Part shown: positions 61,499-61,774 of the stretch, one piece after another
How the letters are laid out: each line of letters opens with the position of its first letter
Numbering within the stretch: the first letter of the stretch is position 1
NCBI RefSeq assembly: GCF_055900595.2
Contig: NZ_CM148325.1
Strand: one strand, 5' to 3'
DNA: 64,000 nucleotides
Notes under the pieces: model-generated
What the model saw: the letters and a program-made list of their open reading frames with translations, nothing else
What the model was told of the DNA's origin: nothing
Database searches by the model: none
Translations under genes and position numbers: made by a program

Positions 61499-61774
61499 TG
61501 TATCTTATATTGTGATATCGGTGCTGCTGCTGTTATTTTTTGTTGTATTTGTGACGAATGGTTAAGAATAAAACATGAGTTGGTGATTATCAGGACAGGT
61601 TGCTTGTATATGAAGATAACAAAGGCGGCATTTATTTTTGCGCTGTCAGTGTGGAGTGTTGCTGTGATATGTCTTTTATTATTTGTACTGGTTGTTCTGG
61701 GATAGCCATAGTGAAATAAAAAGCTGTCTGAATTAAAGAGCCTGTTTAGGATTCTGTGTAAATGCCTTTTCTCA

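Follow-up and report, generated by a model that had tools for sequence, protein, structure and literature searches.

Among the small single-pass inner-membrane proteins of enterobacteria are the YohP, YshB and AcrZ-type micro-proteins. The tail-fibre and attachment-site end of lambdoid prophages is a known location of morons, such as lom, bor and cor, and prophages also carry the Eib adhesins. A third kind of short membrane peptide is the type I toxin, for which the criteria are a small protein (at most 70 amino acids, aa) with a predicted transmembrane (TM) region; a C-terminal polar, charged or aromatic cluster after the helix; a small RNA antitoxin, antisense or divergent, that has a promoter and a terminator of its own and folds into a complex secondary structure; and tandem homologous copies (at least 50% identity) and/or a long distance to flanking genes (Fozo et al. 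2010, PMC2887945). Here we analyse a stretch of 64,000 nucleotides (nt) of contig NZ_CM148325.1 (RefSeq assembly GCF_055900595.2), hereafter the window, in which two short open reading frames (ORFs), sORF25 and sORF31, follow the gene of an orphan helix-turn-helix (HTH) regulator that is itself preceded by a YadA-like adhesin gene. We tentatively favour, with somewhat less than even confidence, the view that both are translated into single-pass inner-membrane micro-proteins as the distal cistrons of a prophage moron. The suggestion of a preliminary description of this DNA that the 31-aa peptide is a small membrane regulator is a possible one.

That description had placed an open frame directly behind the regulator gene, and the frame indeed runs free of stops from 61499 to a TAG at 61703-61705, a length of 68 codons. 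Within it lies sORF31 (61610-61705, plus strand), whose ATG start at 61610 and 31-aa product, MKITKAAFIFALSVWSVAVICLLLFVLVVLG, had been given exactly. The single TM-type helix claimed for this peptide is borne out, and we also find a short positively charged N-terminus (MKITK). sORF31 begins 111 nt past the regulator stop, on the same strand. The second ORF, which had gone unmentioned, is sORF25 (61488-61565, plus strand). It starts at a GTG, overlaps the regulator stop by 11 nt and encodes a 25-aa peptide, MLNNVSYIVISVLLLLFFVVFVTNG, again with one TM helix; its reading frame differs from that of sORF31, from which it is separated by a 44-nt spacer. Both sORFs show the sequence features of small membrane proteins, a functional kind rather than a homology family: each is short, begins at a start codon behind a ribosome-binding site and encodes a single TM helix. 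Moreover, gene callers predict sORF31 on more than 200 short public contigs.

The hydrophobicity of the two peptides stands out. The two strands of the 64-kb window together hold 844 ORFs of 20-70 aa; ranked by their maximal 17-residue Kyte-Doolittle mean, sORF31 came first (3.18) and sORF25 second (2.99), with the third at 2.43. In shuffles of the local segments, which keep the local T-richness, values this high were obtained with p=0.0013 for sORF31 and p=0.0014 for sORF25. Dinucleotide shuffles of 61477-61737 gave at least one ORF this hydrophobic with p=0.010 and two such ORFs with p=5e-5. T occupies the second codon position in 19 of the 31 codons of sORF31 (61%) and in 68% of those of sORF25, each in its own frame, and the T-enriched position changes frame from the one ORF to the other. 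Because of these ranks, shuffle p-values and the frame-specific T at codon position 2, we conclude that coding for membrane helices, at present or until recently, has shaped the DNA of this segment.

It is against this evidence that chance must be weighed, that is, the explanation that sORF25 and sORF31 are accidental ORFs in a T-rich, C-poor non-coding 3′ region (a 3′ untranslated region or spacer) of horizontally acquired DNA. The plus strand of 61499-61737 is 39% T and 10% C, with a G+C content of 35% compared with 46% in the regulator gene, and in these segments the remaining frames, too, are rather hydrophobic. A milder version of the pattern is common, with 28% of shuffles holding an ATG-started ORF of at least 31 aa and 6% holding one that also has a moderately hydrophobic, mildly TM-like stretch. 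The PGAP pipeline calls neither ORF, and the density of single-nucleotide polymorphisms (SNPs) in sORF31 (2 in 93 nt) is listed as no lower than that of the spacer (2 in 44 nt). At the hydrophobicity actually observed, however, the shuffle p falls to 0.001 per ORF and 5e-5 for the pair, two adjacent ORFs take the top two of 844 places, and the T enrichment is frame-specific and switches frame between them. We therefore regard chance as a rather improbable account of the two ORFs. As for the length of the open frame, 0.3% of the dinucleotide shuffles of the region keep the regulator's frame free of stops for 68 codons or more past its stop. Empirically, long post-stop open frames are not rare, being found behind 20% of the long ORFs in the window.

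Both ORFs have start signals. The sequence GGGGGA at 61477-61482, the Shine-Dalgarno (SD) site of sORF25, pairs at -8.6 kcal/mol and leaves a 5-nt spacer to the GTG; it is stronger than the SD sites of the regulator (-6.9 kcal/mol) and of sORF31 (-5.6 kcal/mol). The latter is the SD-like AGGACAGGU at 61592-61600 (plus strand), with its energy calculated against the anti-SD and a spacer of 9-10 nt to the ATG. It had been called weak, which is roughly fair; it is moderate in strength, beating some 85% of ATGs in the window but remaining below the site of the regulator. A local mRNA hairpin at 61472-61530 (plus strand; minimum free energy -17 kcal/mol, z=-2.1, and z=-2.6 in a sliding 80-nt window) encloses the regulator stop together with the SD and start codon of sORF25. 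Given the overlap of the GTG with the regulator stop, the hairpin and the strong SD, translational coupling would fit this arrangement. We detected no terminator-like site between the regulator and the sORFs, and no plus-strand promoter-like site at the sORF region.

We propose the following for the cassette. It would be a prophage-derived, lysogenic-conversion moron made up of the YadA-like adhesin, the orphan HTH regulator, sORF25 and sORF31. Both sORFs would be transcribed by read-through from the promoter of the regulator or of the adhesin, sORF25 would be translated by coupling to ribosomes ending at the regulator stop, and sORF31 would be initiated independently at ATG 61610 from its moderate SD. 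Both peptides are predicted to insert in the inner membrane, that of sORF31 with its N-terminus in the cytoplasm because of MKITK. They would then act as accessory or modulatory micro-proteins of the lysogen rather than as an RNA-controlled toxin.

Searches for relatives returned copies of the cassette. A word-indexed search of 5.8 billion clustered proteins found for the regulator only copies of at least 94% identity and fragments, and a full HMMER search over 1.84 billion representatives found the same copies plus generic HTH matches at E ~1e-4; in neither protein collection was there a regulator homologue below ~88% identity. Searches by blastn and tblastn of 50,697 phage records found nothing. 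Among PHROGs the regulator has a weak match to PHROG 6585 (E=3e-4). For the 68-aa open frame the sole match was to itself, and it has words in common with no larger protein. Pfam (E up to 1), NCBIfam (E up to 10), PHROGs and PADLOC offered neither peptide a family; the lone Pfam match of a peptide, to 'Doppel' (E=0.028), is spurious and lies below the cut-off of that family. Four alleles of the 31-aa peptide are present in the protein collection: the reference, V28I (the commonest), L30M and I20M+V28I. Codon-degenerate DNA patterns, able to catch copies with synonymous changes, found one identical copy of sORF31 in IMG/VR and 18 contigs with the same two alleles in the JGI metagenomes, with zero matches in 100,044 GTDB species representatives. 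Literature searches on this adhesin or cassette yielded nothing specific.

Variation among the copies is slight. There were no frame-breaking indels in 40 records sampled across the 183 complete E. coli genomes that carry the region (below), and 38 further loci hold only the V28 and I28 alleles. Over 20 loci, sORF31 varies at V17I and V28I, the spacer has SNPs at 61574 and 61580, and sORF25 has none, with an in-frame CTG deletion in one strain. The variant T61580C abolishes an upstream TTG, leaving GTG 61583 and ATG 61610 as possible starts. sORF31 is intact in every copy examined, bar one with an insertion sequence (IS). When the two singleton alleles are counted, its variants comprise four non-synonymous and no synonymous changes; this ratio carries no weight, because the bona fide regulator gives the same four to none across the 20 loci (I20V, V96L, A144V and A145T). 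As all copies are at least 98.5% identical and have no homologue outside, conservation cannot tell whether the sORFs code. The cassette is too young for a selection test.

The same near-identity bears on the possibility that the segment is the fossil of a single gene. On this explanation a 72-aa, two-helix membrane protein once started at GTG 61488 and consisted of a first TM helix, a positively charged loop, DEWLRIKHELVIIRTGCLYMKITK, and a second TM helix, until it was split by a 1-nt change in a run of six T (61536-61541). With copies this similar a pseudogene would still appear intact, the spread of the cassette being too recent for decay, and neither hydrophobic piece would need to have a function today. 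Frame 2 is open through all 68 codons past the regulator stop, the 44-nt spacer included (shuffle p=0.003), which such an ancestry would explain, and the loop would follow the positive-inside rule. One more T in the run fuses sORF25 with the frame-2 ORF, as in the T7 sequence behind an NCBI protein, P0020, at one locus of our set (L021). Against this, every reliable copy has T6, and the sole T7 copy has other homopolymer differences typical of long-read errors. Moreover, sORF31 possesses both an SD-like site and its own ATG, the start being A-rich; in the first segment the hydrophobic frame runs on in frame 0 to its own stop (VVFVTNG), and no homologue of the putative 72-aa protein was found. 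We consider this history unlikely, though it deserves to be taken seriously.

P0020 also bears on a further explanation, in which the segment is a lost C-terminal membrane anchor of the regulator, present in a 172-aa form (frame 0) or a 220-aa form (frame 2) and cut off by a frameshift in a run of five G or by the TAA stop. P0020 is a 220-aa 'sigma factor-like' protein (L021 1501-2163, GCA_028598215.1) that joins the regulator to both sORFs and arises because one single assembly has homopolymer lengths of G4 and T7. One G fewer in the G5 run (61477-61481) does fuse the regulator to sORF25 in this way, and the open frame past the stop is the regulator's own. Yet all reliable copies have G5 and the TAA stop, and because the one assembly behind P0020 shows several homopolymer differences, this protein is probably an annotation artefact of long-read sequencing errors. 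No homologue with such a tail was found, one or two frame changes would be required, and to our knowledge tail-anchored HTH regulators are not an established class. A lost anchor is thus very improbable.

Returning to two translated micro-proteins, several points count against them. The translation of sORF25 and sORF31 is putative, and neither has ever been annotated by RefSeq/PGAP. The open frame 2 through the spacer is needless for two separate ORFs and suits a split single gene better. The spacing between the SD and the ATG of sORF31 is long (9-10 nt), and a plus strand this rich in T promotes hydrophobic codons in more than one frame. No homologue outside the near-clonal cassette appeared in the protein, phage, IMG/VR, GTDB or JGI searches, and the excess of non-synonymous variants in sORF31 may be listed here too, uninformative as it is. 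Finally, strain SFE8 (L003 3149-4480) has an IS3-family insertion after codon 3 of sORF31, showing that sORF31 is dispensable at least in that strain. SFE8 also carries IS421 between the adhesin and regulator genes.

The likeness to type I toxins put forward in the preliminary description does not hold up beyond 'small and hydrophobic', a small protein with a TM region being the only type I feature present. The explanation would be that one or both peptides damage membranes, that their translation is held by an antisense or trans-acting small RNA, and that this stabilises the prophage or island. Small, extremely hydrophobic peptides in mobile DNA would suit it, as would two hydrophobic ORFs in tandem. 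A lone promoter-like site on the minus strand (TTCATA-17-GATAAT, 61614-61586, matching at 9 of 12 positions) would yield an RNA antisense to sORF25; 1.7-2.8 such sites are expected by chance, so that the matches do not rise above the shuffle expectation. Rfam contains no antitoxin RNA or other known RNA family at the locus, and overall RNA structure likewise gave nothing. The minus strand over the sORFs is predicted to be less structured than its shuffles (z=+1.5 overall, 0 to +1.5 in 80-nt windows) and has no predicted terminator. There was no match to a toxin family (Hok, Ldr, Ibs, TisB, ShoB and others) in Pfam or NCBIfam. Neither peptide ends in a cluster of polar, charged or aromatic residues: sORF31 ends in ...FVLVVLG, and sORF25 in ...VFVTNG, where two residues are polar but no residue is charged or aromatic. 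The sORFs are not significantly similar to each other (p=0.06 for DNA, p=0.03 for protein), and we rejected them as diverged duplicates. Nor is the locus isolated, since sORF25 overlaps the co-oriented regulator gene and sORF31 lies 111 nt behind it. An assignment of the sORFs to the toxin-antitoxin systems of type I is not supported, and we give a toxin function a low probability.

We next consider the distribution of the cassette, which points to the prophage origin that we propose for the two micro-proteins. The 271-nt region was found in 183 of 5,426 complete E. coli genomes (~3%) at 98.5-100% identity, always on the chromosome and never on PLSDB plasmids. Many of the carriers are from poultry and some are human isolates. 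The gene of a YadA-like trimeric autotransporter and that of the regulator always precede the region, and in the window and most strains IS256-family elements come next. An IS-free context exists in 22 genomes, the clue to which was a metagenomic contig (L009) with a different continuation. Here the cassette lies at the right end of lambdoid prophages, in the order gpJ/lom, tail fibre, DUF4376, adhesin, regulator, sORF25, sORF31, a gap, a convergent dinI-like gene and then the host genes yecD/aspS or ompW/yciE. The DUF4376 gene is presumed to be that for tail-fibre assembly. The gap from sORF31 to the dinI-like gene is 176 nt, of which 164 nt match no other E. coli genome, and on the minus strand a terminator of dinI stands out (z=-3.8). 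Thus the cargo sits between late (tail-fibre) genes and the prophage end and has a composition unlike that of the host, as is expected of a moron's non-essential cargo. Further contexts of the cassette are beside mliC or yaiO.

In the other, 'pathogenicity-island' form, a fragment of ~230 nt is kept 5′ of the adhesin; it is 90% identical to the prophage stretch that comes right after the DUF4376 gene (L002 3654-3887 compared with L018 3218-3446). Because this tail-fibre-assembly fragment has been retained upstream of the adhesin, we take the island form to be prophage-derived, a decayed prophage end. No difference separates prophage- from island-type sequences through sORF31, and they begin to diverge 2-12 nt past its stop, which makes sORF31 the last element of the conserved cassette. 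The preliminary description had named a remnant of a disrupted larger gene as the finding that would speak against its peptide. As far as truncation by an IS goes, this is not what we find, and sORF31 was rejected as the stump of a larger gene cut by an IS256-family element: it keeps its own stop in the IS-free prophage context, where just 176 nt separate it from the convergent dinI, and there is no larger protein with shared words.

In the window, sORF31 is followed by the 'island-type' tail (61706-61737, plus strand), in which homology with the prophage version stops 12 nt past the sORF31 stop. The cassette boundary is formed by an IS256-family terminal fragment (61738-61936, minus strand), within which an ORF at 61772-61921 (minus strand) is the C-terminus of the transposase, and then by IS1 from ~61937. 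In most strains the island-type tail runs 42 nt further before an IS256-family end. At a site ~74 nt past sORF31 (...AATTCAGAAT|G), no fewer than three distinct IS256-family ends adjoin the tail, depending on the strain (L002 6789-6870; L008, L011, L020, L021, L023), and a fourth IS junction, that of the window (61737/61738), lies 42 nt closer to sORF31. The site looks like an insertion hot spot beside a 10-bp inverted repeat (TCTGAATTAA...TAAATTCAGA). Coding on the opposite strand was considered for a 129-aa ORF at 61408-61797 and rejected. The IS holds the only start of this ORF, which is missing from the prophage context; it is a shadow, because T at position 2 of the plus frame yields A-initial codons on the opposite strand.

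The regulator (61043-61498, plus strand; TAA stop at 61496-61498) is a 151-aa protein with a C-terminal sigma-70 region-4 or LuxR-type HTH. Its earlier description as LuxR-like is a loose label: the HTH stands, while the sole Pfam match above cut-off is Sigma70_r4_2 (E=2e-7, residues 87-130), and RefSeq names the product 'sigma factor-like helix-turn-helix DNA-binding protein'. Neither Pfam nor NCBIfam gives a region-2 match, and whole-protein scores are far under the family cut-offs. For the N-terminal half, profile searches gave no confident match and AlphaFold no confident fold; modelled without an alignment, the regulator as a whole reached a mean pLDDT of 37, which is unusable.

The first gene of the cassette is represented in the window by the 3′ part of a YadA-like trimeric autotransporter adhesin gene (60064-60981, plus strand; RefSeq 'YadA-like family protein'), encoding coiled-coil stalk and YadA membrane anchor, with a match to PF03895 YadA_anchor. 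The anchor matches the YadA chain 2lme of the PDB (E=2e-17), and there is no Eib chain among the PDB matches of the adhesin. Inside the gene are 99-nt (33-aa) tandem repeats (window 60334-60494, and upstream to ~59600), the copy number of which differs among strains. Upstream of 60334 the closest genomes have an adhesin that the window no longer matches, and 59665-59940 (minus strand) is an orfA-like ORF of the IS3 family; because of these two features the adhesin of the window is probably 5′-truncated. Between the adhesin stop and the regulator, at 61004-61031, are a GC-rich perfect palindrome, TCCCGGGGGGAGTCCCCCGGGA, and directly behind it a TATAAT (61026-61031). Two of the few polymorphisms of the cassette (61008 and 61013) fall inside the palindrome. 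Further upstream, 52000-58258 matches a 156-kb plasmid from E. coli strain Ch1 at 99.9% identity; it encodes an S6-family (SPATE, Tsh-like) autotransporter protease and contains IS66 and IS110. Because this segment is plasmid-like while the adjoining adhesin cassette is never on PLSDB plasmids, we read the window as a mosaic in which IS elements join plasmid-like to prophage-derived pieces.

The sequences of sORF25 and sORF31 lack homologues and annotation, whereas the kinds of element to which we refer them, unannotated small membrane proteins and prophage morons, are well known. Annotation systematically misses small membrane proteins, and two candidates sit in every copy of the adhesin cassette. 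If translated, they would be the only partners encoded beside the orphan regulator and the trimeric autotransporter adhesin, and could bear on the control of the adhesin or on the persistence of the prophage remnant. If not, the locus offers a clean case of a hydrophobic-ORF signal beyond composition, which may be a one-base frameshift fossil. A bolder proposal is that both peptides are made and jointly form a membrane module whose translation is coupled to that of the orphan regulator, either as a minimal membrane tether or anti-activator that gates the regulator and thereby the prophage adhesin, or as a membrane-active pair that protects or stabilises the lysogen. We hold this to be improbable; were it true, it would be a new homologue-free micro-protein system on a mobile adhesin cassette.

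How the locus compares with described systems can now be set out. Like the E. coli type I toxins Ibs, ShoB, ZorO, Hok, Ldr and TisB, the sORFs encode short, very hydrophobic peptides in accessory DNA, two of them in tandem; unlike those toxins they have no antitoxin RNA signal, family match, polar C-terminus, homologous duplication or isolated locus. The order of a sigma-70 region-4 HTH protein followed by an overlapping ORF for a single membrane helix recalls an extracytoplasmic function (ECF) sigma factor, which has regions 2 and 4, with a translationally coupled single-pass anti-sigma factor downstream of it. The regulator differs in having no region-2 match, and peptides of 25-31 aa, with at most 5 cytoplasmic residues, leave no room for a sigma-binding domain. 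With the enterobacterial small inner-membrane proteins the sORFs share their size (25-31 aa), the single hydrophobic helix, an N-terminus that is short and charged (in sORF31), an unannotated state and a place at the end of an operon. They differ in having no sequence relation to them (NCBIfam, Pfam), in being confined to a mobile, near-clonal cassette and in being only putatively translated. Finally, although this cassette is a multi-gene cargo with its own orphan regulator and two micro-ORFs, and its adhesin is not close to EibD, it resembles the lambdoid morons in its place between the genes for tail fibre and tail-fibre assembly on one side and the prophage end on the other, in carrying an envelope protein as cargo and in its low GC content.

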